In this document: in pieces, positions 11,961 through 62,521 of the stretch | How positions within the stretch are numbered: the first letter of the stretch is position 1 | Layout: every line of letters starts with the position of its first letter | Origin: Nemertoderma westbladi | Lineage: Eukaryota > Animalia > Xenacoelomorpha | Direction of reading: 5' to 3' | Length of the DNA stretch: 64,000 nucleotides | Assembly: GCA_032718475.1 (NCBI GenBank) | Contig: JAUCBJ010007030.1 | Coordinates: 62,001 to 126,000, forward strand | Notes under the pieces: generated by a model | Database searches by the model: none | What the model saw: only the letters and a program-made list of their open reading frames with translations | Told to the model about the DNA's origin: nothing | Made by a program: the position numbers and the translations under genes

Positions 11961-12568
11961 AGTATAAGCCTCATTTTGTATTTGTAGTAGCCTGCCAATT
12001 AAAGCTGATTTTGTTTGGGAGTACACTGAGTCTTGTGACTTTTTCTTCTAAGTTACAGTAAGTAATGAATTAATTAATTAATGTTTGAATGGTTAAAACA
12101 TTATTGATGTATATACATTACTTTGAGTGTAACTTGAACGAAGAGGTGGACAGTTGAATAGTCTTCTGAAGCTTGATAGCTTCTTTCGCGGTGCGCTAGC
12201 ACTGCCATCTAGTAGTAGTAGTAGTAGTTGCCAATATATTTGTATATTATTTTGTATATTGTTTACAATATTTCAAAGTAAAGTTACCCAGTTCGATGTT
12301 TGCCAATCATTTTAGATGGTTGATTTCTTCTTAAGTTAATTATTATCTGATTAAAGTAACTTGATTTCAGTTGGTTAATGTGCGAATAAATAGTTTGGCT
12401 TAAATTGTCCAGGAGAATTTTAGCCAATCGGAGACAAATAATATAAACAGGATCGAATGTGTTTTCAATGTCAAAGGAAGCAGTATATATATAATATATA
12501 TATAATATATATATTGTGGATTTATTGTTTTTTGATGTTGGATGATTATTCTGATGTTTGTCACCCAT

Positions 12569-13746
12569 TGTTCGCGCTTTTAGACCTTTAGCAGTTTAAC
12601 CTGCCAAATTTAGGTGTCTTTTAGGTTATAAATCGACTTTAGCCTATGACAAGTATTTGATACACTACATTAGCCGAAGCCAGCCTATGCGCGACCATTC
12701 ACCCGCTGGATATACCCGGGAGACTGGATTCGGAAGCTCTGACCTTATTGCGGTGTAGGCCTACTGTATTATTCGATTGATCGTTAATATATAATCTCTG
12801 ACAAATATTATTCACTTTCGGGAAATATTAACAGTTCCTTTAGGACGTGGCACTCTAAGTATGTAAACAGAGTTATGACTTACACTAAACACAACGGGAT
12901 GGCTATTGATTCACGTATAAAGCGCATTCTTTAGGAGATGCTTTGTTATCTATCACACTCATGCACACTACCGCACAATGCTGCACACCGATCTGCCGAC
13001 CTTCACTAATTTTAGTCACATATAAAGAGAACAGCAACTGACACCTGTAGGGCCTATGAAATAGCATTAAATTCACTCCAAAACCACTTTAATGTAAGTC
13101 GCAATTGCTATATGTAACCGGTCTCTCACCTTCAGTATATCAAGAAGATTGGGGTTTTATGGTTATTTATCGATATTTTCCAAATATAACAATATTCCAT
13201 CAACTGATACAATTAATAACTGACAGTAAATAGCAGTAAAATAATGTGGTGAAAGGTACGGCGAGTCTGGTATGCCAGGTATGGCAGACTGAGTTGAGTT
13301 GATAACAGTTATACGTTTCTATAATCAAAGCCTTTCTAATGTTTGGCTAAAGTCTGAAACACAGAATAATTCCACAGCCGATGTTCTAGGCTTAGGAAAA
13401 AAGGTAAACATAAACCATAATGCATTGCGCGATTTCCTGGAGGTTTCTGTACAAATAAAATGAAAATCACTCTGATTGGTCGACCGAACAAAGAACAGAG
13501 AAAAAGTTACACGTGTACATATCAGCTGATAGATGTCGTCATCTTGAACTACACTGTATCAAGAGTATTTGGCGTATTGCGACATAAAATTGCTAGTTAT
13601 GTCCGCTAAAGTACACATACAGAAGAAATGGCTTTTTATGTCCACTAAAACACCTACAGTAAGGAAATGGCTTTTTATGTCCGCTAAAATACCTACAGAG
13701 TACTTTGCGGGGAAAATGACTAGCTAATTCCGCAAAAGCCTTTACA
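12569..13746 (-). repeat. 3' LTR (1178 bp)
   Basis: ~99% identical to 21535-22711 (about 12 substitutions + 1 indel counted by eye). Confidence 0.97.
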
Positions 13747-13820
13747 CCGCTCCCAATGGGATTTAATTCTATAAAATATAAAAAATCACAGTTTCTAAAA
13801 TATAAAAATACTCTAAACAG

Positions 13821-14519
13821 TTAGTCTTTCTTGCGAGGACGGCGTTTACACAGTTTTTTGAGGCTAGCAAGAGTCCTTTTCTCTTTGGGGCGAGCCACTT
13901 TACTAGGAGGGCTATAACTCCTGGGTGAAGGGTGTAATACAATTGCATCAGAAGGTTTAGGATTACGGTCGGTGTATCCGCCGGTCGAGGTACCTGGTTG
14001 ATCGATATCAACTTCAGTGGAGCGAGGTCTAACAGCCTTTAGAGCGCGTCTTAGGACAGCAGCTCCTACGGGTCCCTGACGAGTCGTCTGAACGATAGCG
14101 GTAGGTGGACCGTGAGTGGTGAGAAACTTCCTCGGTTTAATGGTTCTTTCCAGCTCGCGTTCTCGGGCTCGATATTCGTAGGGCCATCGATGTACTTCCT
14201 GTAAATCAGGATGCGAGTTGATGAACAAATCGCCATACTCCGGGTCTTGACGGATGAAATTGATCAAATGGTATGAATTAATATCGTTAGGATTGATGTT
14301 CCTGAGATATTTTCGAACAAATTTGGTGGAAATACACTCACCAACACGCTTCATTAGTTCGTAACTCGGTGTGCGTGTTTTTTGTTCAACAGACGCGAAT
14401 AGATAAGGATGGAACGCGTAAACTCCTTCGTAGGCGCGTCCAGGGTAATAGCGATGGCGTGACTCACAATGTAAATCCGCATTCGCTTCCCAAGCTCGGA
14501 TGTAGCGCAGGGTAATCAT
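13821..14519 (-). CDS. Orphan ORF within LTR element (232 aa, basic NLS-like C-terminus)
   Basis: ATG ORF ending KKLCKRRPRKKD, 75 nt before the 3' LTR. Confidence 0.6.
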   Translation of the reverse strand: MITLRYIRAWEANADLHCESRHRYYPGRAYEGVYAFHPYLFASVEQKTRTPSYELMKRVGECISTKFVRKYLRNINPNDINSYHLINFIRQDPEYGDLFINSHPDLQEVHRWPYEYRARERELERTIKPRKFLTTHGPPTAIVQTTRQGPVGAAVLRRALKAVRPRSTEVDIDQPGTSTGGYTDRNPKPSDAIVLHPSPRSYSPPSKVARPKEKRTLASLKKLCKRRPRKKD

Positions 14520-14594
14520 CTCATCTACGCTTTCCAGATCGCGGTTAAAAGGTCAATTAAAACTGGCATGTCCTTTAAGTTGACAATGATGGCA

Positions 14595-14819
14595 TTAAGT
14601 CATAAATTGGGGGCAGACTGCGAAAATGTGCGAGTTATTGAGTCTGCAATACGCACAATAGATCTCCATCATCGGTTGTTCATGGAAATAGGAGCAGGGT
14701 ACGTCTGAGTCCATAGGGGTGAAATGATCTCTCGATGCGCATAATCGGCAACGTTTTCGAGAAACATAGTTGGCGTGCCGTAATCGTATGCGGTGAGACA
14801 TTGTGGACCTTGATACCAT
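14595..14819 (-). CDS. Small Cys/His-rich ORF with zinc-knuckle-like motifs
   Basis: CRLCASRDH...C and CAYCRLNNSHIFAVC; overlaps the end of the 308-aa ORF in another frame. Confidence 0.45.
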   Translation of the reverse strand: MVSRSTMSHRIRLRHANYVSRKRCRLCASRDHFTPMDSDVPCSYFHEQPMMEIYCAYCRLNNSHIFAVCPQFMT

Positions 14820-15595
14820 ACCAAGACGTAGTCGTTATCGCTGCTCCGGGGCGCTGTAGGCTGAATCTCCTCAGATTCTAAGCATATCGGTTCGTCTTCC
14901 AATTGCATAGTTGAGGTAGGTGCGGCTGTCTCCTCAAGCGAACCCACTGTCTGAACTTCCACGATAGAATAACCCGTGGGTATTCGAGGTCTTTGTATAG
15001 CAGATGAATGTAAGTTCTGTATACAAACGTCCTTGAAAATGGCAAATCCCGCGCTGTCTAACTTCTCAGCAGCTGAGTCTCTTAGGCTGAGCTTGGTCAG
15101 AGCGCGGTCCTTGAACTGACTATCAACGTTACGGAACGGAGTCAGAAAGCGCCTGAAACATTCGAAGCGGATGAATTTATTGTGTTCATCTAGCTTGGCG
15201 AGTTTGGTTCCAAGTATTAAGGGATGGGCGCGTATAGTACGACTGCACACATCGGCCAGCCAACCGGCAAGTGCTGCGTTTTCAAAGATCGTGTATATAG
15301 CTAAGGAGGGACGAAGTGGAACACTCATAAAGCTATACACGGCGCCAGGTGCGGTCAATGGTCCGTCAAAGTATAATCGAGAATAATGATCTCCATATAC
15401 TTGTGGGTAGTTGATAGGATTTCCAACCTTGAAATTCCATCCGTATTCTTGAAAGGCAAGATGTCCGATGGAGGTTCGTTGTACTTTAGTAATGCCGCTG
15501 GGTGTATTGGCATTCATAGTACGGAAGAAACCTCGGCGTTCTGCCCAGGGAGCAATCAGCTGAGTATCGACGAAAGGGTATGGAATGTTCTCCAT
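14669..15595 (-). CDS. Orphan ORF within LTR element (308 aa)
   Basis: Long ATG-initiated ORF with globular-protein composition; no RT/RNase H/integrase/protease motif recognised. Confidence 0.6.
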   Translation of the reverse strand: MENIPYPFVDTQLIAPWAERRGFFRTMNANTPSGITKVQRTSIGHLAFQEYGWNFKVGNPINYPQVYGDHYSRLYFDGPLTAPGAVYSFMSVPLRPSLAIYTIFENAALAGWLADVCSRTIRAHPLILGTKLAKLDEHNKFIRFECFRRFLTPFRNVDSQFKDRALTKLSLRDSAAEKLDSAGFAIFKDVCIQNLHSSAIQRPRIPTGYSIVEVQTVGSLEETAAPTSTMQLEDEPICLESEEIQPTAPRSSDNDYVLVWYQGPQCLTAYDYGTPTMFLENVADYAHREIISPLWTQTYPAPISMNNR

Positions 15596-16385
15596 GTTCC
15601 TGTCGTATGCCTAATATGTTTTCCGCCATTGATGGTAGAGAGCAGAGGAAAACTTATGTCGCATTCTGAAATATTCAGAAATACGATCTCAGTAGGAGGA
15701 TTGTATCATTCGATGACTATCTCCAAATGAATTTATCCCCAATTATTAAAGGAGGTGAACAACCAGATTTATGACACATAATGGTACCAGTTGTTCACAG
15801 ACTATCCACGTGTCCTTTCAGTCCTTGAATCACGGTTGTGGACTTAAGGAAATTATTGGTGGTTGATTATCTAATCAACGACAAGAGGGATGGAAGTTGA
15901 TATTATAAATACCAACACAATGGTACATGGACAGGAGGTGCAGACACTAATATAAGCATCCAGATCAATAGTAAGGGAAGGGGAGGTTTATTAGGAGGCG
16001 GTACGATTCATACAACGATAACACTAGGATTGGTCGATCGTCTCCCAAAGCTCCGAGCACGTTGGGAAGAGAAGGTGGGATGAAGTGCGTTGTATCTTTA
16101 ATAGCGATGTATAGAGGGATAATAGTAGTAAGGAGGAGGAAGGATATATGGTAGTATCTATAAGATACCACGATGGACATGTTTTCCATTATGTCATCAT
16201 TCATTCTTGCTCTTTAATTGCGACACTGATCACAATAATTACAGGAAGACGATGAAATAAGAGAAAATTACAGCCTCCCGAAGGAAACCGCCCGCGAGCA
16301 CCCGTGCCCCGGGGAAAACTATTCACATTATGGACCCTGGACACTAACGTATGTCTTTTCTCCAGTGGTTCTCATCTACTTGTCT

Positions 16386-16751
16386 TTACCAGCCTTCTTC
16401 CACATTCCATCTTTCGAGTCGGTTTCGAATAGAATTCTCGTGTTCTATTCTCGGTTTATCGTTCCGACTCCGCTGGGTATGATATTTAAATAAAACCATT
16501 TCCCTTTCGGTGTCTACATCGTCCGTATCGTGTAAATCGATAGGATGGCCAGTAGTTAAGAAGTCCATATACGTACCATTACGATGCGTATAGCGAGCGG
16601 TGAATTTTCTATAGTCCAATTCACGCGTAAGTTGCTCCTGGGACATTGGCGGTTCGATATAACGACCATCGTCCTCCGTAGTGGTTGGACCAGCGTCGCC
16701 GCGTATCAAGCTATCAACAAACGCTTGTAAAGGTAGAGTAGGGTTTCTCAC
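16386..16751 (-). CDS. Orphan ORF within LTR element (121 aa)
   Basis: Open frame directly after gag; no recognisable domain. Confidence 0.4.
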   Translation of the reverse strand: MRNPTLPLQAFVDSLIRGDAGPTTTEDDGRYIEPPMSQEQLTRELDYRKFTARYTHRNGTYMDFLTTGHPIDLHDTDDVDTEREMVLFKYHTQRSRNDKPRIEHENSIRNRLERWNVEEGW

Positions 16752-19634
16752 TTACCTTATTTTCCGGTGTCTTCTCTCTGGACTGCTTTAGGAGCTGTAA
16801 TTTTACCTCTCCATCTAAGAATGACATGAGATCAGCCATGGTAGGGTCTCTTCGTTGTTGTTCCATCATATATAACACTTTCTTGTCCCAGCGTGTACCT
16901 ACTCCACCCTTTGGCAAAGTTGATGCTAAGGCTCCTACAACCATAGAATTCTGGTATTCATGAGACTTACCTAACCAATCTAGTTGTCTACAGATCTCCT
17001 GAATCTCGTCAGAAAACTCTATAATCCCGCTGCTAAGAAACTTTCGGGGCGCCATTAATTTCTCATACAAATACCTAGCTATGTTATTCCTATTACCATA
17101 CCTGATGTTTAGTGTATCCCAAACTTGTCTTAATCCATCTGGATGTCCAATAAACTTTAACACCATTAACTTGGGAGATCCTTCCAAGCACTCGATGAGG
17201 AATCTAAGTTTCTCTCCGTTAGATAGCACAGAGTTCTGTATGTTATCTTTGTAATATTCATTAAAAGGTAACCATTTCATCTCATCTCCATTGAACTTGA
17301 CGATCTCTCCAACCTTTACCGCTTGATGGGCTTCGGTTCTAGCCATTTGATGCGTAAAACTTTCTTGGGCCATCGTATTATTTAATATCGAGTTATCGGT
17401 ATATAAATTTCTCGGATTATTATCAGGTCTATATGGAATATCATTGTCAACAGGTTTATAATTACCCTTAATAGGGTTTACTATAGGAGTTTCTACTTCA
17501 CTAGCAGTATAGATGCGTGTAGGCTCCACACCTTGCGCATGAAATACTTCAGACCTAACAGGTTGACACATTGTTACCGGGGTTGGTGGTATACCCTTTT
17601 GTATATTTACTAATTTATCGCGTTCTAACGCGATACTCTGCTGCACTTCTTGCAACTCTAACCTACCCTCTCTGACTGTTCTCATTAACTGCTGAACAGT
17701 TCCTTCCATCTCCCGGACCTGCTGAGATGAGCACAAACGGTGTTCCCTCAGCTGCCCGAGCAGGAGATCCATCTCCCGTCGTCCCTCATCCACCCACTCG
17801 ACCGCCGAAGCGGGAGCCGCCAACGTAGTAGCGGGCGGACGAGGGACAACGGGCACCAAATCATTAATATTTCGCTCGGAGTCCAGGACAGGAACTGTCT
17901 CAGGGGTTGTTCTGCTAGACACAGGTAGTTTAGTGCTGTGCAAAGGGAACTTAGAGGTAGGTTCTGGGAGTGCAGGTGTCTCTATCACCAAAGGGGTGGC
18001 TTCGAGAACAGGCCTAATTATTTCAGGCTCATCTACTATAGTAGGGAGTCTTTCTATTTTAATAATTTGGTCTGTGATAATAATTAGGTTCTGTACTACC
18101 TAAGTCGGTGCTAGCTAGTTGCCTTCTCACGGCGGGGGGCAAATCAGGCAATTTCTGACGGTGAGGCATTCTTCTACGCCTACTTAGACGAGATCTATTT
18201 CCTCCGCCTTCAAGATCGGTGGTATCGCCTTCATCCGATGATGTAAAGCCCTGTCTTTTGGGAGTAGATTGACTCATCATCTGCATTTGACTAGCTGTTA
18301 ACTGTTTATTTATGCAGTCTTGATTCTCTTGAATATTTTCCAACTCTAGTTGGGTAGTCTCTTCAGACGCTCTCCGTTCTGCTTCTGCCACTTTTCTTTC
18401 CGCTTCTGCCGCTGCCACTGCCGCTTTTCTTTCCGCCTCTGCTGCTACCACCGCCGCTTTCTTTCTGTCTTCTATACGTTTTTTCTTTACTTGTTCTTCT
18501 TGGAATCTAGCGATGTGGAGGCGTTCATCAAATTTAGCTTGGTTCGCAGCTAACATTTCCGCATCTATTGAGTCCAACACAAGCTTGGCTCCTTCACTAT
18601 TAGGGCAAAGTCCAGCCAGCCGTCTCCTCAACTCTTCATCACCTAGAAATCTTTGATAGTCTGACAGATAGATGTCAATAGCGTCCCTCGTCTGCGGTTT
18701 CTCTGCCGTCGCTTCGCTTTCCACTTGAGAAAAGGTAGCGTCTGTTGATTCTCGATGGGTTGAGCGCTCAGCCAGCTGAGATTTCCACTGGGCTGTTCCT
18801 TGAACCTTGAGACCCACCCGCTGGAACCAAGTCTTTACGGCAACTTGCAACGACGTGTCTTGTCTTCTTTTCGAAGCTTCCTCAAAGGCCGATAGGATTA
18901 GTCTGATTCTTAGAATTCTTTCTCTAACTTGATAAAGCAGCTCTCCCTGCTCTTGAGGTCCTTGGGGTTGTCGAAACAGTTGTTCCTCTAATCACTCCAA
19001 AGAGCTGAAGAATCCCTGTACATATCCTGCTGCCAACCTCTTCCACACAGCTGGATCACTAGTGTCTTCTGTCACTCCCATCCTGTGTATGTCTTCCCAA
19101 GCAGCTTCCGATAAGTCAAACGGGAGTCCGGGTCCGGGGAAGTTCCATTGCGACTCGACAATAGACTTCAGTTCCTCTCTTGTGTATCCCGCATAACTAT
19201 CCTTGGTCGATCGCTTACTTCTCGCCCAATCAATTTGGTGTTCCTCCACCGCAATCAATACCCTAGTGAGCTGCAGGAAGGATGAGAAGGGGATCCGAAT
19301 AAACCGCATCTGCCATCTTTGCTCCGCGCTCGGGTGTCAGCTCTACCGTATCCGAACTACTGGAGCTGTCGGGCCGCTGAGAAATAAGTTCTCGGCTCGG
19401 GTGTTGCTGCTGTTTAACAGCTGCTTTTTGGTCACGCTTGACTTGGGCCCGAGTGCCTATGATAGACCTACGGTGTTGGACTAGCCTAGGGTCTGATACT
19501 ACTACTGGAGGGATGATCTTTCTTACAGTAGGAGGTGAGTTGAACTTTGGTCTCACACATTCCACACTCCTGTCTGGGTCACAGATGGTTGTATCTAGGA
19601 GACTGTCTGACAGGTTTTGCTTTGTGTCAGACAT
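16714..19634 (-). pseudogene. Disrupted BEL/Pao-type gag
   Basis: ORFs 19634-19263, 19309-18059 (one in-frame TGA at 18992-18994) and ~18060-16714 join through two frameshifts; coiled-coil region, then KFNGDEMKWLPF...EKLRFL..CLEG.P...WDTLNIRYGN, resembling the Pao gag/DUF1759 core. Confidence 0.75.
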
Positions 19635-19759
19635 GTTTGTTTGTACAGTTGAATGCCTACTGCTATATTACAGTTAAAGCAAGTCTAGTAATTCAGGATC
19701 AACTGTTAGCCTAGTAATTAATTACCGATATCGTTACTCTATGTAACGTGATATATATA

Positions 19760-20030
19760 CAATATATTAGAATACCGGTATACACTTATAGTATATATAT
19801 AAGTATTATTACAGACTAGGTTTGTCACAGAATACCGGTATATAATTTCAGCGCAAATATATATAAATATATAATAAGCCTATCGTGAATACTGGTATAC
19901 AACTTACACTTATAGTATATAAGTATAATTATGGACTAGAATTAATTACAGAATACCGGTATATAATTTCAGCACAAATATATAGAAATATATAATAAGC
20001 CTATCGTGAATACCGGTATACAATTAGTTT
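19760..20030. repeat. Tandem duplication in the LTR element leader (AATACCGGTATA motifs)
   Basis: Two ~120-bp blocks each with repeated GAATACCGGTATA. Confidence 0.75.
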
Positions 20031-21534
20031 AGAATAATTGAATTTCTGAATTTTAGAGTTACTTGGTTACTTTACTTTACTTTATTACCGTTATTTAAGC
20101 AGTAGTCCAACTGACATTCAGACCTAATTGTTGTAAGACAGGCCTACTATTTTATAAATCGGTTTGAGTTGATTTATAATATATATACCCGTTTAATGGG
20201 TTTTTGTCAATATTTGAAATAAATGTTATTTTTTCTGGGAAAGAGTCACTACACAGAAGCTGTACGCTCTCAGTGAAGTGCTACTTGTTGGACACTAAAA
20301 CAAATAATTCTAATTTGCCTAAGTTACTTAATACGACAAATTACGTACAATACGGGGTGAGATTACAATCTCTAAATAAACACAAAAATTATACGTACGA
20401 ATTTTTAGGGTAATTTTACAAGAAGTCTACAAACCAGCCTAACAAGGGGTTAGAATTTCTGGTTATTACAAACGGACAGGATACTACGGTATTTGAAAGT
20501 AATAAAGCATTAGTAAATATACTGCGTTGTCCAGATAGGAAAAATACCACCGTCTGACGACTTATAGCCGTAGCGCTATAAGTACTACGTTATGTATCAC
20601 GGAGTGTTCCTACCTAGAATTTAATTACCGCGGCCTACAAGAGCCAACGTGCCTATTAACCACTTTACAACACAAATATACTGCCTACACACTAATTACC
20701 TTCGGAAAGCACTGTATACTAAACCCTAAATTAGGTACAAGTACTTATACAACAAATAACCAGCAGTTAAAAATACTTGAACAGCTAAAAGAACCACGGT
20801 ATCTGCCGGAGTGACCAAAGCATAAAATCTCCAGTCTTTACCTACGCCAAACAGCCCTGATGTAGTACCGGGGTTAATTTAACTATAACGGTATATATAA
20901 CAAGCACAATTACTGTAGGAATAAACTTGGGGGTATGAATGTTGCGAATAATCGCATAAACTCTGAATAATAAATATTACGCTACCCTTACAGACTACAC
21001 AAACAAAATACAGACCAAACGCTGGCAGACTACTATCAAGCCTAAATAAACTACAGTATATGCAGACTCCGAAATGGTTAGTTAGTATGCATTCTAACCG
21101 AGTAGTACGACTTATTCTTTCGGGGGGATTTACCTTACAGCACTGGATGCCCACCACATTCCTAACTAGTACTTTATCGGACATATACTCTACACACACT
21201 GCAATCTCTTCAGACTTAACAACAGTCAGACAACAGTCCAGCCTACAAATTACCTGTACAATCTGAGCGGGCTTACACGTCTTCTGCTCAATATTAACTT
21301 ACAATTAAATAGAACTGACAGAAATAAATAAGCTCCAAAAGAAACAAGGGGTGTACAGTCCCTAATCTCTTAAACAGCCTACCGGTATACAATATCACAA
21401 TCGAAATAATACTAATACCTGTACTGCTGTAAGTACCGGTTCGGGTGGTTAGGCAGTCAGGCCTACTGGTTACCGGTCGACCGGTACTTTAATCTTTATT
21501 GCCTACGTCGCAATAAAGATCCTATAACTGTTAT

Positions 21535-22711
21535 TGTTCGCGCTTTTAGACCTTTAGCAGTTTAACCTGCCAAATTTAGGTGTCTTTTAGGTTATAAATC
21601 GACTTTAGCCTATGACAAGTATTTGATACACTACATTAGCCAAAGCCAGCCTATGCGCGACCATTCACCCGCTGGATATACCCGGGAGACTGGATTCGGA
21701 AGCTCTGACCTTATTGCGGTGTAGGCCTACTGTATTATTCGATTGATCGTTAATATATAATCTCTGACAAATATTATTCACTTTCGGGAAATATTAACAG
21801 TTCCTTTAGGACGTGGCGCTCTAAGTATGTAAACAGAGTTATGACTTACACTAAACACAACGGGATGGCTATTGATTCACGTATAAAGCGCATTCTTTAG
21901 GAGATGCTTTGTTATCTATCACACTCATGCACACTACCGCACAATGCTGCACACCGATCTGCCGACCTTCACTAATTTTAGTCACATATAAAGAGAACAG
22001 TAACTGACACCTGTAGGGCCTATGAAATAGCATTAAATTCACTCCAAAACCACTTTAATGTAAGTCGCAATTGCTATATGTAACCGGTCTCTCACCTTCA
22101 GTATATCAAGAAGATTGGGGTTTTATGGTTATTTATTGATATTCTCCAAATATAACAATATTCCATCAACTGATACAATTAATAACTGACAGTAAATAGC
22201 AGTAAAATAATGCGGTGAAAGGTACGGCGAGTCTGGTATGCCAGGTAGGGCAGACTGAGTTGAGTTGATAACAGTTATACGTTTCTATAATCAAAGCCTT
22301 TCTAATGTTTGGCTAAAGTCTGAAACACAGAATAATTCCACAGCCGATGTTCTAGGCTTAGGAAAAAAGGTAAACATAAACCATAATGCATTGCGCGATT
22401 TCCCGGAGGTTTCTGTACAAATAAAATGAAAATCGCTCTGATTGGTCGACCGAACAAAGAACAGAGAAAAAGTTACACGTGTACATATCAGCTGATAGAT
22501 GTCGTCATCTTGAACTACACTGTATCACGAGTATTTGGCGTATTGCGACATAAAATTGCTAGTTATGTCCGCTAAAGTACACATACAGAAGAAATGGCTT
22601 TTTATGTCCACTAAAACACCTACAGTAAGGAAACGGCTTTTTATGTCCGCTAAAACACCTACAGAGTACTTTGCGGGGAAATGACTAGCTAATTCCGCAA
22701 AAGCCTTTACA
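21535..22711 (-). repeat. 5' LTR (1177 bp)
   Basis: Direct repeat of 12569-13746; short tandem repeats near the U3 end. Confidence 0.97.
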
Positions 22712-22989
22712 CCCATCACAGCTTCGACTAAAATGTGATGTATTATACCGGTGCCAAAAATTTAATTTAATGATATAGTATTCGGTCATATAATTTACCA
22801 AGAAGTTGGAAGAATACTGCAATAATTAATTATAACCTTTGTGAGATCAACTTTGAATGACCTACTTAAAAATATACATACAGTTCATCAGAATAGTCAA
22901 GATCGGTAGTAGTATTTGACATATCAACTCTAAGGTTTTACCCAGGAAATCATATCCATCCACCCTTCTTTGTTCGTCAAATACCTTCT

Positions 22990-23804
22990 TATCTGCACTT
23001 ACATATAGTTTATATTATATACTTACATATATAGTGAATCTACACTTACATAATATTCATCAACACTTACATATAGTTTATCAACACTTATATATAGTTT
23101 ATCAATACTTACATATAGTTTATCAACACTTTCACATAGTTTATCAATACTTACATATAGTTTATCTACACTTACATATAGTTAGTTTATCAACACTTAC
23201 ATATAGTTTATCAACACTTACATATAGTTTATCAATACTTACATATAGTTTATCAACACTTACATATAGTTTATCAACACTTACATATAGTTTATCTACA
23301 CTTACATATAGTTAGTTTATCAACACTTACATATAGTTTATCAACACTTATATATAATTTATCAATACTTACATATAGTTTATCAACACTTACATATAGT
23401 TTATCAATACTTACATATAGTTTATCAATACTTACATATAGTTTATCAACACTTACATATAGTTTATCAAGACTTACATATAGTTTATCAACACTTACAT
23501 ATAGTTTATCAACACTTACATATAGTATATCAATACTTTCATATAGTTTATCAACACATACATATAGTTTATCAACACTTACATATAGTTTATCTACACT
23601 TACATATAGTTTATATACACTTACATATAGTTTATCAAGACTTACATATAGTTTATCAACACTTACATATAGTTTATCAACACTTACATATAGTATATCA
23701 ATACTTTCATATAGTTTATCAACACATACATATAGTTTATCAACACTTACATATAGTTTATCTACACTTACATATAGTTTATCTACACTTACATATAGTT
23801 TATC
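22990..23804. repeat. 21-bp minisatellite (~38 units) derived from the CUB2 exon/intron junction
   Basis: Minus-strand unit GATAAACTATAT|GTAAGTGTT; the first unit is the real exon end and donor. Confidence 0.97.
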
Positions 23805-23962
23805 AAAGTATTCAGTGTGAAACGCTAGGAAATCTACTCGAACCCGGTTTCCTGCTGGAATTGTGATGTGGTACCAGCATACTTCGTTATTATTATAGTC
23901 ATTTGGAAAGTTTATGGATGTAATATAACCATATGTTGAGGTGAGATCTTGACCACCACACA
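23793..23962 (-). CDS. CUB2 N-terminal half exon (CGGQDLTSTYGYITSINFPNDY...FLAFHTEYFDKLY)
   Basis: ttgcag acceptor, gtaagt donor, classic CUB motifs. Confidence 0.93.
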
Positions 23963-27179: not shown

Positions 27180-27556
27180 ATCCATGGTGACCTCTATATT
27201 AATAATATTATTCTAAGTAGAAATGCACTAATCTCAAAAGGAATTATTATCTGCATTTGACACACTAGGCTTAACTACCCATAATAAGTCTGAACCAACG
27301 AGATTACAGTAAGTAGAAAATCAGCAACATTATTAGATCTGGTAAAACATAGAACACAATCTCGTCCAAGAATGTAAGGTTTTCCCATTCTTCTACTCAG
27401 ATTATGAGCACACGGTACTACTGTAACTCTCAAACAAGCATAGCTCCAATACATCAGAAAATAAGTGGATAAACTTCAGGGACTTTAAAAAATTCAACAA
27501 TTCTGCTTTCTTAGCCGATATTAACAGTGTAAATTGGGAAAATATATATCTGTCAC
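27180..27556 (+). mobile_element. Degenerate LINE fragment left of the Gypsy insertion
   Basis: EPTR...DL and F..FNNSAFLADINSVNWE-like text, typical of the end of the LINE endonuclease region. Confidence 0.45.
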
Positions 27557-27584
27557 TGTAACAATTACTCCCCCTAAATACAAA

Positions 27585-29327
27585 AGCTATTAAGGGCTTG
27601 TGATCAGTTATTACTTTAAATGGTCTTCCATGCAGGTACGTATGAAATTTATGCACGGCCCATTTCAAAGCCAAAAATTCCCTATCTGTTGTGGAGTATC
27701 TTTTTTCTGTTGGAGTCAGTTTATGAGAAGCATACGCTATGGGTCTTTCATCAATTATTGGTTGACATAATACAGCTCCAATCCCCACTGAACTTGCATC
27801 TATTTCTAAGACAAATGGGGCCTCAAAGTCTGGCAAACGCAATACCATGTGTTCATCCTTTAAACATGCTTTCAAATGGGAAAATCCTCATTTGCATTCA
27901 TCATTAAATTTAAACTTATTTGATGGTAAAGTTTGAGCTGTATATAGTGGTGCCGCAATAGTTGCATAATTATGAATAAATTGTGAATAGTAACCGCACA
28001 TACCAGTGAACGTCTGTAATTGTTTTGGTGTTTTAGGTTCGTTATAATTCAGAATACCCTGAATCTTCTCCGGATCCGTCTTCATTAGGCCATTTTCAAA
28101 TATAAATCCAAATATTTTTATTGATTGTTTTCCAAACGAACATTTTCTTGGGTTTAGTTTCCATCCATCTTCGATTAATCTCGAGAAAATATTTTCCAGC
28201 ATATCAATATGTTCAGGAACATTAGTTGATGGAACTACAATATCGTCTAAATATGGATCAGGTAATTTCCTTGAACTTTCTGGTAGGTATTCATCTGTTT
28301 TTCTAACAGTTTGACGTATCTCTCTTTGAAACAATGGAGGACAGCGGTGAATGCCATATGGTGCTCTTGTAAATTTGTAAAATCCATTTCCTGCTTGAAA
28401 GGCAGTTTTGGGGCGAACTTCAGGATTGATCTTAATTTGCCAATAGGCTGATTGTAAATCCAATGTACTAACAACCGGACAACCTGATAATTGGTCGATT
28501 ATATCCGCTATGCGTGGTAAAGGATATTGGTCATGGTCAATGAGTTCATTAAGTTTTGAATAGTTCACACAAAATCTCTTTTTTCCTCCTGGCTTAGGAG
28601 CCAACAGGGCTGGGAAAGCCCATGGTGATTTACTAGGCTCTATCACTTTCATATCCAACATTGTTGTGACATGTTCCATGATTTCTTTCTCCTCAACTGC
28701 ACTCCGCCTATAAGCACGTTGAAATATCGGAGTATGATCTCTAGTCTCAAAATTAAGTTCGGCATGTTTATAACATCCTATATCTTCTGGAGAATTACTA
28801 AAGGCATCAGAGTATTTCCACAGTAATTGTGAAAGTCTACGTCTTTCATTCTCATTCCAATGAGCCGGTAGGCTGAACTGAGATAAAAAGTCTTCTTTCG
28901 AAAGTTCCTTTTTAATTGAAGCAGTTTCTGCAGGTAAACTAATTCGGGATAACCCAAAGTCGATAATTGCTCCACATTTATACAATATATCTCTGCCAAT
29001 AATAACACCGAAACGATTTGAATCAATAATACCGAACCAGTGATTACAAATTTTCCCACCAAGTTTAAATTCCAGCATTGCATATCCTAATATTTGAAAT
29101 GGATTTCCAACCAATGCCCTAAGTGTTCTATCTCCACAGCGAGTTTCTGTTGCAAATGATAACAATTGGTCATCATTCGGAATTAAACTAATTTCTGAAC
29201 CTGAGTCAATTAAAGCAGTTTTATGTTTACTCATACCACCTTTAACAAACTCAACAGAAACTGAACTGGCTGTCAGGGAACTACTGGACTGCGTTAGTTC
29301 GTCCCTGACAGCCCCGACAAGTTTTTT
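27585..29327 (-). pseudogene. pol: Gypsy pol (protease, RT, partial RNase H), frameshifted and truncated
   Basis: LIDSGS, SPWAFP, LDLQSAYWQI, YLDD, DASSVGIGAVL, TDHKPL; frameshift near 27880. Confidence 0.92.
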
Positions 29328-30010
29328 GACTTCACACAGTATCGAGAAATATGCCCACGTTGCCCACATGTGTAGCAAGTTAAATCCTTCCAACAGCGTT
29401 CAACAGTATGCCCAACTTTATTGCATGTTGAACATTTGAGTTTCATTCTTGATTCACTCCTATCGGTTGAAAAGTTCCTTCGACCGGTAATTCCTGCTGC
29501 AAACACGGAAGTTTCCTCGGGATCCGGAAGTTGTTGGATGAACTCGGCAACATCGCGCGAAGTTGCCTTCGGATTAGTCGCCCTCCATGCGAAAACTGTG
29601 GCTTTAATACTCGTCGATACGCTGTCAACTAAACGCTGAACAACCGCGTCGTCGCCGAGCGAAAGATAGTACGTTAAAAATTTCAATGTAATTAAACCTT
29701 TCTGGACTTCAGAGGGTTTCTCTAATTTAAACTTCGAGAAATCAACACTGGGCGATACCGGTTTCTTGCACTTATACCATTCCTTTTCCAGTGCTTCGAT
29801 TACAGTTTCAAAAGTGGAACGTTTATCAACGAGTTTGTACTCCATAGTGATAAGCAAATCTTCGGATACAAATTGTGGAAGCCATGTTAGTTTAGTTTCA
29901 CCATCCTTGGAATCAATATTTTTACGAGCATAGTAGGCGTCTAATTGTCTCTTCCACGCGTTAAATGATATGGAATCCACACTAAGATATGGTAAACTAC
30001 CCGGCGACAT
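29294..30010 (-). CDS. gag: Gypsy gag with two CCHC zinc knuckles
   Basis: CSTCNKVGHTVERC and CYTCGQRGHISRYC. Confidence 0.9.
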   Translation of the reverse strand: MSPGSLPYLSVDSISFNAWKRQLDAYYARKNIDSKDGETKLTWLPQFVSEDLLITMEYKLVDKRSTFETVIEALEKEWYKCKKPVSPSVDFSKFKLEKPSEVQKGLITLKFLTYYLSLGDDAVVQRLVDSVSTSIKATVFAWRATNPKATSRDVAEFIQQLPDPEETSVFAAGITGRRNFSTDRSESRMKLKCSTCNKVGHTVERCWKDLTCYTCGQRGHISRYCVKSKNLSGLSGTN

Positions 30011-30229
30011 TATAAACTGTTATATTTACACACTGCGCCAATGTTAAGATAACAGGTACGGTACTGAAGTAGGGTATCTAAAAGTCTGTCTTTCTCACAT
30101 TCCTACATTCCGCATTATATTCAACTAAAGAACAATAATCTCAAATCAAATCTCCCTCCATACACAAATAAGGCTAAAGTAATTCACAACAACTAATTCA
30201 CTACGTTACAGGGGCGTTATACACGGACA

Positions 30230-35199: not shown

Positions 35200-35560
35200 A
35201 TTAATGATAAATTTTCCACTGAACCCTAACGCCAATAGTTTAATCCATAATGCACTTATATCTACACTATAAACGGCTTTACGCAGATCAATAAATGCAC
35301 AATAAAGTTAATTGCTATTGCCCGAAAGAAAATGATCGATCAAGGATTTTAAGATTAGCATTTGGTCTACAATGGAATAGCCTGGTCTGAAACCACCTTG
35401 CGACTCCAATGTAATACCGAATGCGTCGGCCAACCATTGTAGACAACGATTTATTATAGATGTAAACAATTTACCGAAACACTCTATAGAGTAAAAGCTT
35501 TGCACCTTTTTTTTTAACAATGGGGCAACAATTCCTAATGCTTTCTTGTGGGGAAGTTAT
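35200..35560 (-). mobile_element. LINE RT fragment
   Basis: GIVAPLLKK, CFGKLFTSII, ESQGGFRPGYS..DQ, YCAFIDL.KA. Confidence 0.8.
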
Positions 35561-36538
35561 GAGTCGCTATTTAGATACAGCAAATGGACGAGTTGCGTCC
35601 AACCAACGATTCCGTGATTTGGACCCCTCCCACCCTCAATCTACGAATCCATTTCCCATTCTGCAGGCACCAGTAAATAACCTTTCTAAAATACTCCTCA
35701 ACCAGGACCAGAGAGACTTGCTCGGATTGGGGTTCACTTTCATTCCATACCATGGTACCGCACCCTCTGATGTTCTAGAGGCTAAGATTGATGTAGCCTC
35801 AGCAGCAACGAAAATTAGAACTAGATTTCGAAAATTGGTTAATCCACCTATGGATGAACAATCAGCAACGCCCCCTCAAACATCTGGCCAACTGCATCGT
35901 GCCACCGAAATCCCTGTAGCATCAAACACTTCTGCTACTCCCAAGGTTAGTACTGCCACGCAACTATCTCATACTCGTTCGCAACCGACAACGGCCCGCA
36001 AAAAACTATTCCCAGCCGCGAATACAGATGCTTATGAACCAACACCCCTTGTTGAAGTAATACAAGAGCTCAACAGAGCGAATCAACAGCCGGCTCCACG
36101 GACCCGACCCCGGGTAGAGTGCAGTTTGCACCCAGATTTTCCTTTGCAACTTGACCGCCGAGCTGGAGTTCTCATTCCTGACACACCTTCTTCGCGCACC
36201 CGTTCGAGAACAGCACAGGATTCAGTTAACTACAATCTGCGAGGTAAGAGTAATTCTAGACTTAACGCCATCCCGCAGTCACCCCCTATTGCTGTTAAAC
36301 CTCCTGATCCCCCTCACTTTAGCCATCCCCGTTGGGTAGCGTCATCTGTAGACAGCGTTTCTGTTGAGAATATTATTTCTGGCTTGCACAGAGCAGTGCG
36401 AAGGGTCAATGTAGATAAACTTAATGAGGATGTACGCCCTAATATCACCCCAGCACAGCAGTTGGCTCTCAAACAGCTCCGAAATAACAAGAATTTAGCA
36501 TTCCTTAAAGGTGACAAAACTGCTAATATTATTTTTTA

Positions 36539-38398
36539 TTGGATAAATCTGCTAAGGAATATGAGATCCTTCGAATTTTGGGTGATAAGAAAACATATGA
36601 GAAACTACGCAAAGACCCTACTGCACGATGTCGTGTTGAATGCCGATCGTTATTAGATTCCCTTGCTATTGGGAACCAACGGCTTCGCCATCACCTCTTC
36701 CCTAATACCTTCACTACCGGCCATATCTTTATAACTCTTAAAGACCATAAACCACGTGACGAATGGGTAACCCACCCTAATGGTGCCCTAATCCCAAAAG
36801 GTAGACCTATTATATCTAATACGGACGCATTTTTTAAACCCTTATCCAAAATGATGCACTACTACCTGCACCCTTTAGTTACTACTGCCGATAACTATCT
36901 AAAAAGCTCTTTGGATCTCAAACAAACCATGCCTACAACAACTAATAATTCCCATTTTACTTTAGTTACTATTGATGTAATCGACATGTTTACCGCCATC
37001 CCTCATGAATTGGGTATTGAGGCTACCATGCATGCACTTTCGGAGGATCCTACGTTACCTGAACGTTCTATTTTTACACCAACTCAACTCGCAGCAATTT
37101 TACGGTTTCTTTTATACCACAACTTTTTCTGTTACCAGAATATGTACTACCTGCAAATCGCAGGAGCACCTATGGGCGGTCACCACAGTAGTGATTATTC
37201 TATAATCAGTTCGTACAAAGTACTCAAGAGGGCGTTAACTATTTCGCTACGGACTCCTTCATTCTTTCGTACTCTGGTGGATGATAGTTTCGCAATTTAC
37301 GATGAGCGACTAACTGATCAGTATTTCGAGTTCATGAAGACCGCATTCAATTCAGCGTGCAGGAATTTATATAATAGTGATGCCATCCAATTTACAATGG
37401 AGTACTCCCATGCTAGTGTCGACTACCTCGATCTAACGATAGCTGCTAATGCCTACACCCTTAGAACTCGTTTATTTAGAAAACCAATGGCTAATAAACT
37501 ACCTATTATGTACTCTAGTTTCCACCATAAACCTACGTTACGGGCAGTGGTGAAATCGGAAATTTTGCGTATTCGCCGTTTAACTGACTCAAACCATTTG
37601 TTCACATGTTATAAACACCAGTACCTCGAGTTGTGTGAGAATCGAGGCTATCCGCTGGATTTCCTCCTCTCCCTCCATGCATCAAACCCAACACCTCTTG
37701 GTCCAGTGCCGATCACGCAGCAGCCGTCTTTACCAACAGAGGGGGATGGTCCATCAGCACCCCAAAATTTGAAGACTACATCGAATGGGCCAAAATACAC
37801 CTCTATATATCTCCCTACGACCCCACAGTTCCTGCCTGTCCTAGCGCCCGTTATCCGCAAATATAATGCTGACTTGCGTTCGCTAGGTATTAGTGTCCAA
37901 ACGGTCCCGCGTAACCTCCCATCGTTAGGTAAACTGTTGATCACCAAGTCCGAGCCAACTCTGCCTCTTGGTAATCACTCTTGCAATGGGCCTCGTTGCA
38001 AATGCTGCTCGGCCGTTCTAGACCAGCGCCGGACACCATGGGGTGACCCCATCCATGGGAGATTTAACTGCAAATCATTTAATGTGATATATTTTATCAA
38101 ATGTAAACTGCATCCACACTTGTGGTATCTTGGCCAGACAGAACAGCGTTTACATGAGCGCCTCCGAGGTCACCGTAGTGCCATAAATGAAGCAGCTGTC
38201 AAGGGGCTAGGAGTCGATTTATCGAGTCCTGAAGTCTTGCTACTGCAACACTTTGTTATTTGTGGGATCGGTGCGCTCAATATTACATGTTCTAAAAGGT
38301 TTACTAACCACGAGCGTAGGATTCATTTTGAAGCGGTTCTGATTAACTTGCATCGCCCCCCACTTATCACTGTAGTTCCCCGTATTGGTCTGTACTAA
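36539..38398 (+). CDS. Penelope RT + GIY-YIG endonuclease (continues the 35520-36538 frame via a frameshift in a T run)
   Basis: KGDKTANIIF / LDKS is split by a frameshift at ~36531-36540. Confidence 0.88.
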   Translation: MDKSAKEYEILRILGDKKTYEKLRKDPTARCRVECRSLLDSLAIGNQRLRHHLFPNTFTTGHIFITLKDHKPRDEWVTHPNGALIPKGRPIISNTDAFFKPLSKMMHYYLHPLVTTADNYLKSSLDLKQTMPTTTNNSHFTLVTIDVIDMFTAIPHELGIEATMHALSEDPTLPERSIFTPTQLAAILRFLLYHNFFCYQNMYYLQIAGAPMGGHHSSDYSIISSYKVLKRALTISLRTPSFFRTLVDDSFAIYDERLTDQYFEFMKTAFNSACRNLYNSDAIQFTMEYSHASVDYLDLTIAANAYTLRTRLFRKPMANKLPIMYSSFHHKPTLRAVVKSEILRIRRLTDSNHLFTCYKHQYLELCENRGYPLDFLLSLHASNPTPLGPVPITQQPSLPTEGDGPSAPQNLKTTSNGPKYTSIYLPTTPQFLPVLAPVIRKYNADLRSLGISVQTVPRNLPSLGKLLITKSEPTLPLGNHSCNGPRCKCCSAVLDQRRTPWGDPIHGRFNCKSFNVIYFIKCKLHPHLWYLGQTEQRLHERLRGHRSAINEAAVKGLGVDLSSPEVLLLQHFVICGIGALNITCSKRFTNHERRIHFEAVLINLHRPPLITVVPRIGLY

Positions 38399-39075
38399 AA
38401 CATGTGAACTTTGTTTTGTATATTCTACTTAGGATTTTGTATTAATCAGTTTGGTTTTATTTTATATCTTATTGTTTTGCTAACTATGTGGCTCGTCCCA
38501 CATGCCCGCCTTAATGATAATTTCACCTCCAGTCATACAGCTGCTATTTGCTTTTTGAATAGCTGGCCCCTCTGGATATTTACCCTATGGCGTAGTTAGT
38601 ATTACTCAATCATTCTGTTAGTTTTATTTAATTAATTTTAAAGATTTTATTACTGCTTTTATTTCTGAGGTTTTTATACACATGTCATTCGTATACACTA
38701 TATCACTGTTGTTTTATTATTTTATCAGCCTTTATTTGTTTTTATAGATATTCTACTTAATAGCAGGATAGGGTACACCATTGGTTTAGTTTTTATTTAC
38801 TATTAATTTTTTAAAAGTTTTTAACATTTTAATACCTTTATTTTAAATTTTGATTTGAGTTAGTTTTGGTGCATTATGAATTTCCGATATAATTTCAAAC
38901 CATGCTCAACTTCTTCTACCGGTCTGCCACTTTACACAGCTAATATCTTTATTAAAATAGTCATAACTACTGTACACTATACAGTACCATAACGGTATCG
39001 GTTTTGTATATATCTTTGTAGGTTTTGAATTGGTTGTTTTAGTTAAATTATATTAATATTGTGTTTAAAATAATA

Positions 39076-39118
39076 TACCACTGAAGACGCGCGGGAAGCG
39101 TGAAATAGCTATATGGTA
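39076..39118 (+). ncRNA. Minimal type I hammerhead ribozyme in the Penelope pLTR
   Basis: TACCA-CTGAAGA-C-GCGC-GGGAA-GCGT-GAAA-TAGCTA-TA-TGGTA. Confidence 0.85.
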
Positions 39119-39182
39119 AACTAACAATATTTTATATTAGCCGTGGCTCAAGACCCTTACTCGTCATTAATATTTATAATTT

Positions 39183-41353
39183 AGGTACAATAAATTAGCG
39201 TCCCTCTCTATAACAACCGTAGGTACAATAAATTAGCGTCCCTTTCTATAACAACCGTAGCTACAATAAATTAGCGTCCCTTTCTATAACAAACGTAGGT
39301 ACAATAAATTAGCGTCCCTTTCTATAACAACCATAGGTACAATAAATTAGCGTCCCTCTCTATAACAAACGTAGGTACAATAAATTAGCGTTCCTCTCTA
39401 TAACAAACGTAGGTACAATAAATTAGCGTTCCTCTCTATAACAAACGTAGGTACAATAAATTAGCTTCCCTCTCTATAACAACCGTAGGTACAACAAATT
39501 AGCGTCCCTTTCTATAACAAACGTAGGTACAATAAATTAGCGTCCCTTTCTATAACAACCGTAGGTACAATAAATTAGCGCCCCTCTCTATAACAAACGT
39601 AGGTACAATAAATTAGCGTTCCTCTCTATAACAAACGTAGGTACAATAAAGTAGCTTCCCTCTCTATAACAACCGTAGGTACAATAAACTAGCGTCCCTC
39701 TCTATAACAACCGTAGGTACAATAAATTAGCTTCCCTCTCTATAACAACCGTAGGTACAACAAATTAGCGTCCCTTTCTATAACAAACGTAGGTACAATA
39801 AATTAGCGTCCCTTTCTATAACAACCGTAGGTACAATAAATTAGCGTCCCTCTCTATAACAAACGTAGGTACAATAAATTAGCGTTCCTCTCTATAACAA
39901 CCGTAGGTACAATAAATTAGCGTCCCTTTCTATAACAAACGTAGGTACAATAAATTAGCGTCCCTTTCTATAACAACCGTAGGTACAATAAATTAGCGTC
40001 CCTCTCTATAACAAACGTAGGTACAATAAATTAGCGTTCCTCTCTATAACAACCGTAGGTACAATAAATTAGTGTCCCTCTCTATAACAACCGTAGGTAC
40101 AATAAATTAGTGTCCCTCTCTATAACAACCGTAGGTACAATAAATTAGCGTCCCTTTCTATAACAAACGTAGGTACAATAAATTAGCGTCCCTTTCTATA
40201 ACAACCGTAGGTACAATAAATTAGCGTCCCTTTCTATAACAAACGTAGGTACAATAAATTAGCGTCCCTTTCTATAACAAACGTAGGTACAATAAATTAG
40301 CGTCCCTTTCTATAACAAACGTAGGTACAATAAATTAGCGTCCCTTTCTATAACAACCGTAGGTACAATAAATTAGCGTCCCTTTCTATAACAAACGTAG
40401 GTACAATAAATTAGCGTCCCTTTCTATAACAACCATAGGTACTATAAATTAGCGTCCCTCTCTATAACAAACGTAGGTATAATAAATTAGCGTCCCTTTC
40501 TATAACAACCGTAGGTACAATAAATTAGCGTCCCTTTCTATAACAAACGTAGGTACAATAAATTAGCGTCCCTTTCTATAACAAACGTAGGTACAATAAA
40601 TTAGCTCCCTTTCTATAACAAACGTAGGTACAATAAATTAGCGTCCCTCTCTATAACAACCGTAGGTACAATAAATTAGCGTCCCTCTCTATAACAACCG
40701 TAGGTACAATAAATTAGCGTCCCTTTCTATAACAAACGTAGGTACAATAAATTAGCGTCCCTTTCTATAACAAACGTAGGTACAATAAATTAGCGTCCCT
40801 TTCTATAACAAACGTAGGTACAATAAATTAGCGTCCCTCTCTATAACAACCGTAGGTACAATAAATTAGCGTCCCTTTCTATAACAAACGTAGGTACAAT
40901 AAATTAGCGTCCCTTTCTATAACAAACATAGGTACAATAAATTAGCGTCCCTCTCTATAACAAACGTAGGTACAATAAATTAGCGTCCCTTTCTATAACA
41001 AACGTAGGTACAATAAATTAGCGTCCCTTTCTATAACAAACATAGGTACAATAAATTAGCGTCCCTTTCTATAACAAACATAGGTACAATAAATTAGCGT
41101 CCCTCTCTATAACAAACGTAGGTACAATAAATTAGCGTCCCTTTCTATAACAAACGTAGGTACAATAAATTAGCTTCCCTCTCTATAACAACCGTAGGTA
41201 CAATAAATTAGCGTCCCTCTCTATAACAACCGTAGGTACAATAAATTAGCGTCCCTCTCTATAACAAACGTAGGTACAATAAATTAGCTTCCCTCTCTAT
41301 AACAACCGTAGCTACAATAAATCAGCGTCCCTCTCTATAACAAGCGTAGGTAC
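39183..41353. repeat. 38-bp satellite, ~57 copies
   Basis: Unit AGGTACAATAAATTAGCGTCCCTYTCTATAACAAMCGT. Confidence 0.98.
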
Positions 41354-61837: not shown

Positions 61838-62521
61838 TCACTCAGGAGTCGCATACTCTTCATTATTTGTTTCGAAATGAAACTTATACAACGGATCTTC
61901 ACGTAGTTTCCGGGCTCTAGCTAGCAGTCTGTCTCTGTCTATGTGGTGAGAGTTGAGTCGACTAGCTAGACTGGCAGCTTGTACGCAGCCATCGGCGAGT
62001 CCGTAATCGCAGGACTTCATATAATATTGGAGGCTCTTCGATAAGTCCTTCGTCAGGGATCCATCACCCTCGAGATTCGCCCGTTTATATAAATTCGCGA
62101 CAGCGAAACAGGATTGGTTGTGTTTCAAGGAGGAATCGCAAGATTTTAAGAAGTAGGCGAGAGCGCGGGAATAGTTAGTAGCTGAGGCGACCCCAGCCCT
62201 GTAACAGACCCTGAGGTAGCCCTGCTCCAGACACGATATATCAGCGTATTGCAACCCGAGCATCCGTTCGCCACGCTCTAGGTAGGCTAACGCTACCTTC
62301 CCGCAACTGCGTCGGTGTCTGTAGTTGTCGCAGTTTGCACGATGTAGACGCAAAGCTTGGTCTGGGTCGCGTTTGTGCGTTCCCGTGTGCTCCGCCATTA
62401 AGCAACACGCCTCACTGTCGTTCTCGTGCAAACAACCCATCTCGAATTCCTCACCAACTATTTCGATTATTGCTTCCAAATCTTTGGGATTTGAGGGGTC
62501 TAGACCACCGACACCTGTCAT
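61838..62521 (-). CDS. COA7: Cytochrome c oxidase assembly factor 7 (Sel1-like repeat, Cys-rich), intronless CDS
   Basis: 227-aa ORF with the COA7 pattern GC.HEND.EAC..., NCD...H..SC.K, repeated K(S/A)CD...(S/G)C units. Confidence 0.85.
   Translation of the reverse strand: MTGVGGLDPSNPKDLEAIIEIVGEEFEMGCLHENDSEACCLMAEHTGTHKRDPDQALRLHRANCDNYRHRRSCGKVALAYLERGERMLGLQYADISCLEQGYLRVCYRAGVASATNYSRALAYFLKSCDSSLKHNQSCFAVANLYKRANLEGDGSLTKDLSKSLQYYMKSCDYGLADGCVQAASLASRLNSHHIDRDRLLARARKLREDPLYKFHFETNNEEYATPE

Follow-up and report, generated by a model that had tools for sequence, protein, structure and literature searches.

We analysed a 64,000-nt stretch of Nemertoderma westbladi DNA (contig JAUCBJ010007030.1, positions 62,001 to 126,000; the whole stretch is called the window below), in which an element bounded by long terminal repeats (LTRs) occupies 10,143 nt of the minus strand, from 22711 to 12569. 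A first-pass annotation of the window had described intact TG...CA LTRs about 99% identical, a perfect CCCAT target-site duplication and a gag with a Pao-type core, and all three descriptions held: the LTR pair is identical in 1165 of 1178 columns (98.9%; 12 substitutions and 1 indel), CCCAT stands on both flanks, and the gag core matches DUF1759 (Table 1). BEL/Pao elements duplicate 5 bp at their target, the length of CCCAT here. The LTRs enclose a non-coding leader, the broken gag, a pair of short open reading frames (ORFs) and a region of cargo. The firm new result is that this cargo is a single conserved orphan gene with zinc knuckles, belonging to a high-copy family of BEL/Pao type; its function, the autonomy of the family and self-priming are what we infer.

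The interior had been annotated as a cassette of five orphan ORFs of 121, 79, 308, 74 and 232 aa without a recognisable pol or env motif. Those of 79, 308, 74 and 232 aa exist, and the 121 aa are a stop-to-stop length with 86 aa from the ATG, but they are not five genes. ORF74 and ORF232 lie in the same frame, split by two stops 14 codons apart, and together with ORF308 they make up a single gene that three lesions have broken (Table 1). Sister copies are known as contigs of public sequencing runs, the stretch or part of it being present in 5 of the 7 listed runs (four from organism A and one, X5, from organism B). All 30 element bins were covered in each of the four runs compared. A single X3 contig over 14142-14495 had a depth of 7329, against 6.7 and 30.9 for flank contigs, suggesting a copy number somewhere in the hundreds at a rough estimate. 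None of the 35 X5 contigs over the cargo was found at 99% likeness.

Differences between the window and these sisters follow a single reading frame. Five indel rows between 13790 and 15720 had a share of at least 10%; four lie upstream of the ATG at 15595, and the sole one inside the gene is a single-base indel at 14780. Weighted by depth, the covering contigs differ from the window at this indel in 87% (X2), 79% (X3), 100% (X4) and 100% (X5), and at the first stop every compared sister contig differs from the window. From the best-supported 40 of 533 difference rows we scored 38, omitting a row that falls on a stop codon and another that lies upstream of the ATG; in the joined frame 26 of these 38 support-picked differences are synonymous, against 28% expected (p 3e-7). 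Of the 24 differences below 14780, 19 are synonymous if read in the knuckle/232 frame and 6 if read in the 308 frame. Within the overlap of the two frames the bias switches at the indel: below it, 5/6 differences are synonymous in the knuckle frame versus 1/6 in the 308 frame, and above it 5/6 are synonymous in the 308 frame versus 2/6 in the knuckle frame.

Gaps gave a concordant picture. Sister contigs of 350-540 nt at 81-86% identity carry 0-1 gaps across the gene, and in its N-terminal part stretches of 470 nt with 91 differences (X4) and of 167 nt with 30 differences (X2) have none, while one 151-nt partial match there has a gap. The leader, for contrast, shows 21 gaps in 527 nt and 12 gaps in 318 nt. 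Cover drops about 15-fold directly upstream of the ATG. Taken together, the one frame, the flip of the bias at the indel and the gap-free divergence argue that 15595 to 13821 is one gene under coding constraint, and the reading as separate orphan ORFs is largely refuted by the latter two observations. The 308- and 232-aa frames had been described as remaining open while gag was broken, a hint of selection on the cargo. By these sequence comparisons the cargo is indeed under selection in the family, but it has not been spared in this copy, where it is as broken as gag, with three breaks each.

From its N-terminus the encoded protein consists of a region of about 210 residues, an acidic proline-rich linker, the knuckles, some 120 further residues and a tail of low complexity; the linker varies among sisters (loose ends at 14900). 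Recognisable motifs are present, namely three of the CX2C...H zinc-knuckle kind. The net charge is +20, and lysine or arginine takes 14 of the last 40 positions. Neither a signal peptide nor a membrane span was found, the best 19-residue hydropathies being 1.19 and 0.59 and the N-terminus not hydrophobic. An envelope was rejected for want of glycoprotein features and of any family match, and a pol remnant because no pol family or motif matched. The motifs suggest that the protein likely binds nucleic acid and enters the nucleus.

Homologue searches with parts of this protein gave no usable match. ORF308 had none among proteins of 169-539 aa, and phmmer against 1.84 billion representatives returned 0 at E 0.001, this exhaustive library being searched with the ORF308 part, not with the knuckle/232 half. 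Searches with ORF232 among proteins of 127-406 aa, and with the knuckle region plus the ORF232 core among those of 432-2000 aa (a weak search), found none. Viral contigs searched with the 308 part and metagenome contigs searched with ORF232 yielded no confirmed match, the best ESM Atlas entry (0.85, 65 of 256 features common) was not usable, and the PDB held nothing below E 0.09 by sequence. Pfam EAD2 on ORF232 scored below the cut-off and was rejected. Single-sequence AlphaFold2 models had a mean predicted local distance difference test (pLDDT) of 31.6 and 37.1, and Foldseek returned 0 at E 0.001 on them, which is uninformative. Of the earlier claim that novel accessory genes are spread by the element, what stands is that the cargo is no pol or env remnant, that a high-copy family shares it and that coding constraint acts on it among sisters, with a single gene in place of the cassette.

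Table 1. Features of the element in window coordinates, in the order in which the element is read
Feature	Position	Strand	Details
Target-site duplication, upstream copy	22712-22716	.	CCCAT on +; flank comparison
5′ LTR	21535-22711	-	1177 nt, TG...CA; LTR comparison
Candidate self-primer	22268-22279	-	12 nt, identical in both LTRs; exact complement of 21523-21534; predicted RNA 5′ end
Predicted stem-loop at LTR end	21553-21574	-	nested in longer stem 21660-21538, beside primer site
Candidate primer-binding position	21523-21534	-	complementary to the element's own LTR; first 12 nt after 5′ LTR, offset 0
Non-coding leader	19635-21522	-	about 1.9 kb, 35% GC, indel-rich among sisters
Broken gag region	16714-19634	-	in four pieces, with frame changes near 19300 and 18080 and a stop at 18994
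DUF1759 Gag core	16909-17295	-	Pfam E 5.8e-14, 52.8 bits vs cut-off 25.4
Gag/cargo branch point	16734-16741	.	sister contigs continue into other sequence
ORF121	16386-16751	-	stop-to-stop; 86 aa from ATG; no family match
ORF79	15965-16204	-	one hydrophobic stretch, hydropathy 1.65 (borderline)
Accessory gene	13821-15595	-	about 590 codons; ORF308 + ORF74 + ORF232; frameshift near 14780, stops 14597 and 14555
Three zinc-knuckle motifs	14553-14750	-	CX2CX4HX9C, CX2CX5HX4C, third cut by second stop
Short purine-rich tract before 3′ LTR	13747-13754	-	purines 7/8 nt; BEL/Pao tract about 10 nt
3′ LTR	12569-13746	-	1178 nt, TG...CA; LTR comparison
Target-site duplication, downstream copy	12564-12568	.	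CCCAT; flank comparison

The four gag pieces probably belong to one gag, whose DUF1759 core we take to be a marker of Pao Gag. The last piece stops about 60 residues past DUF1759 and contains no Cys-His box. The annotated absence of pol and env between gag and the 3′ LTR was confirmed: no pol or env family matched in six frames from gag to the 3′ LTR or in the three sense frames of the leader, with frames read through stops as X and with a reverse transcriptase (RT) elsewhere in the window scoring E 2e-21 as control, and no protease, RT, RNase H or integrase pattern matched in the element. Diverged pol or env fragments, named beforehand as one outcome that would tell against the annotation, were not seen. 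Gag differences are synonymous in 6 of 12 and 2 of 6 cases, numbers too small for judging constraint, and metagenome contigs searched with gag gave no confirmed relative. Sister copies show further internal deletions in gag (joints 18718-19587 and 18246-18681), a second branch point at 18053, at the frame change within gag (16 X1 contigs, 4 X3 contigs), and a 33-nt coding repeat at 18385-18465 with varying copy number.

Where gag meets the cargo, sister contigs part from the window. Among the 24 loose-end rows listed out of 2648, at least 60 X1 contigs depart from the window at 16740 when followed from the cargo side, comparable to the 14-87 contigs for nearby difference rows; from the gag side two X5 contigs leave at 16734, and another X5 contig ends at 16741. 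Because sisters branch off at these points, the direct join of gag and cargo is likely a minority or private state, and because gag ends without a Cys-His box at the branch point, this copy has likely undergone an internal deletion at 16740 that removed the box and pol. By the usual BEL/Pao order, the missing segment would hold the Cys-His box and pol, which would place the accessory gene in the env position. The first reading of the element, as a member of a pol-less family mobilised in trans, is less likely than a deletion in this copy or its subfamily, to which the sister contigs leaving at the join point.

Between gag and the accessory gene, ORF121, with sisters at about 80% identity and 0-1 gaps, is likely the surviving end of a longer segment. 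ORF79 lies within the least covered bin, with few sister contigs, and its status as a gene is not supported. It was compared with sORF2/FAST of MDG1-group elements, which has a single membrane span, an MGxxxS/T motif and a basic patch after the span (bioRxiv 10.1101/2025.03.14.642691). sORF2/FAST provides a precedent for a selected non-env accessory gene in an LTR element, and ORF79 is likewise small with one hydrophobic stretch. A FAST-like role was rejected, however, as ORF79 lacks the myristoylation motif (no MG start) and the basic patch (one lysine or arginine in the 15 residues after the stretch), and the main cargo, unlike sORF2/FAST, is large and soluble. An X4 contig of depth 2918 joins 16410 to 14848, which suggests a sister subfamily without ORF79 and the N-terminal region of the accessory protein.

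The priming of reverse transcription was examined at the end of the 5′ LTR. No tRNA primer site was found there (no TGG within 30 nt), and no host tRNA was found in the 64-kb window. The first 12 nt of the interior have their exact complement within the LTR. Of 7776 internal 12-mers, no other than this one at offset 0 has such a complement there; in 3000 dinucleotide shuffles none reached 12 nt. The predicted pairing probability of the duplex depends on where the RNA is taken to start, being 0.94 for a start at 22279, 0.84 at 22286, 0.02 at 22275 and 0.0 at both 22311 and 22411. The sole AATAAA of the 5′ LTR, at 22137, lies 142 nt downstream of the self-primer site; this LTR also has a 39-nt tandem repeat close to its start. 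The stem-loop predicted at the LTR end may resemble the U5-IR of Tf1. Judged from sequence, the family likely takes its primer from its own RNA, namely from the 5′ end: with a start of transcription near 22279, the leading 12 bases would pair back to the primer site, where a full-length partner's RNase H would cut them, as happens in Tf1.

Published accounts of self-priming concern Tf1/sushi, Tcn1, TAR and Tj1, the criterion being at least 10 nt, starting 0-5 nt past the 5′ LTR, that are complementary to the LTR (PMC4600332, PMC6317226). As in those elements, a tRNA site is absent here and a self-complement of sufficient length and position is present. Those elements belong to Ty3/gypsy or Ty1/copia, whereas this one has a Pao-type gag and is known from sequence and predicted folding. 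Next after the primer position, at 21521-21471 (minus strand), come a hairpin of 12 bp and a perfect palindrome of 16 nt, which are candidate packaging or dimerisation signals. Further along the leader, at 19770-20023, a 137-nt block is duplicated, with copy number differing among sisters.

Members of the Belpaoviridae carry gag, pol and sometimes env, with LTRs of 0.2-1.2 kb, genomes of 4.2-10 kb and a tRNA-Arg or tRNA-Gly primer (PMC8742986; survey literature in PMC3118150). The element resembles them in its LTRs, near the top of that range, its total length, at the upper limit, and its DUF1759 core; it differs in that this copy has no pol (protease, RT, RNase H, integrase), no Gag Cys-His box and no 18-nt tRNA-Arg/Gly site, and in that its third gene is not an envelope. 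Because pol, the box and such a primer site were not found, we class the copy as derived from BEL/Pao and not among the full members, gag being the sole ground for this. Extra genes are on record in BEL/Pao elements: Anakin has a chuvirus glycoprotein, roo, Tas and Cer carry env (PMC7642597), viral glycoproteins as extra genes also appear in PMC13524379, and eBxnv-1 has a captured nodavirus RNA-dependent RNA polymerase plus an unknown protein (PMC5177903). The present element shares with these an extra gene within its LTRs, and two-LTR defective copies are common among them. Their genes are recognisable glycoproteins or a polymerase, whereas the gene kept here by a many-copy family encodes a soluble knuckle protein for which no homologue was found. 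Neither a knuckle accessory gene nor a self-primer was found for any BEL/Pao element in the literature searched, a scope outside which lie subscription papers, supplements, Repbase and GyDB, where such a family could already be on record.

On balance we favour the view that the element is a recent, broken copy from a high-copy family whose gag is of BEL/Pao type and is followed by one conserved extra gene, that it likely lost pol by deletion, and that the family likely encodes a nuclear nucleic-acid-binding protein and primes itself. The accessory protein would come from a subgenomic RNA, bind element RNA or DNA via its knuckles, and, entering the nucleus by means of its basic tail, aid in expression, in export or in evading silencing. 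This copy, unable to make gag or the accessory protein, could move only with the enzymes of another element.

Several observations weigh against this view. No listed contig spans the gag/cargo junction, so that pol between the two genes in sisters is an inference. The scored differences were picked by support and share common ancestry, and their count is neither a random sample nor a dN/dS. Above 14837 only 2 of 8 differences are synonymous, most of these rows being near 100% share, as expected for changes specific to the window copy; the constraint on the N-terminal 250 residues is drawn from gap-free contigs. The indel at 14780 is absent from 13% (X2) and 21% (X3) of depth, and the frameshift may thus be common to a minority of copies. 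No row falls at the second stop (14555) among the differences listed, and since contigs drop rare variants, mutation and assembly error are inseparable at the lesions. The primer motif is near-palindromic and AT-rich, and its LTR site is also TATA-box-like, with an initiator-like TCAGTC about 20 nt downstream. Finally, the function proposed for the accessory protein derives from its motifs, with neither a homologue nor a usable fold to go with them.

The segment missing at 16740 might also be short, consisting of the Cys-His box and a spacer, in which case the whole family would be pol-less: a TR-GAG-like animal element with gag and an accessory gene, spread in trans by other BEL/Pao elements. 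We regard this as possible but doubtful. It fits the absence of any pol remnant, the full cover of the element in all four runs and the constrained appearance of both genes, and the plant TR-GAG elements, which like this copy have two LTRs and gag without pol, do transpose (PMC8704663). But the join at 16740 is a branch point rather than the common form, this gag has no nucleocapsid box, and BEL/Pao elements with foreign genes occur as both complete and defective copies (PMC7642597). The likeness to TR-GAG is further limited by the animal host, the Pao-type gag, the second long gene and the lack of a single intact gag in what is probably a deletion copy. A bolder reading, unlikely as a whole, would make the family a self-priming BEL/Pao lineage reminiscent of complex retroviruses, in which env is replaced by a nuclear zinc-knuckle regulator of a new class, acting in RNA export or against silencing, and pol-less members that keep the gene spread in trans, with hundreds of copies in at least two animal species.

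Two further explanations concern the cargo itself. Instead of being a regulator, the three-knuckle protein could play a structural part, as an additional or relocated nucleocapsid for packaging or chaperoning the RNA: it has three CCHC-type motifs in a row, Pao Gag also has three (a triple Cys-His box of CX2CX3-4HX4C, CX2CX2-4HX4-5C and CX2-4CX3HX4H; PMC554778), and this gag has none. Given that the knuckle spacing is unlike the Pao box, that the loss of the box from gag coincides with the branch point, that about 500 further residues are kept and that no capsid or Gag family matched, we judge this very unlikely. It is hardly credible that the cargo consists of separate orphan ORFs or of a host or viral piece captured lately and riding along passively; the ORFs are separate in the window, and one Bel/Pao element on record combines a captured viral gene with an unknown one (PMC5177903), yet the synonymous bias switches frame at the indel, sisters are gap-free at 14-19% divergence, and no donor was found in any library searched.

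The surroundings of the element were also surveyed. No second copy or solo LTR of the element was found elsewhere in the 64-kb window. Positions 22686-23000 are covered without difference by contigs from X1 and X3, which are from two studies and either of which may be the source of the window; the upstream insertion junction therefore exists in both runs. A host gene has a CUB-domain exon (Pfam E 8e-11) at 23790-23960 (minus strand), bounded by AG and GT; its donor region is repeated in tandem behind it. The element is downstream of this exon in the same sense and is likely an intronic insertion. Elsewhere, 27402-30019 (minus strand) holds a broken Gypsy-like element with a knuckle gag, protease, RT (RVT_1 E 2e-21) and RNase H pieces, and 35490-38398 (plus strand) has ORFs of 388 and 623 aa, which may encode a Penelope-type RT with C-terminal endonuclease. 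A tandem array of about 59 copies of a 38-nt unit (93-98% identity) occupies 39050-41300, and an intronless 231-aa ORF with Cys-rich helical repeats at 61838-62533 (minus strand) is probably a host gene.

These results show that an orphan ORF cassette read from a single copy can be one decayed gene. In the literature examined, BEL/Pao elements that carry an extra gene have mostly captured a viral envelope, and a conserved, soluble knuckle protein of 590 residues that lacks homologues would represent a novel type of accessory gene. If the proposed interpretation is true, this gene is a candidate for retrotransposon self-regulation or for countering host silencing, and the self-primer would bring the mechanism of Tf1 into a third superfamily, for which the ICTV profile gives tRNA priming (PMC8742986).

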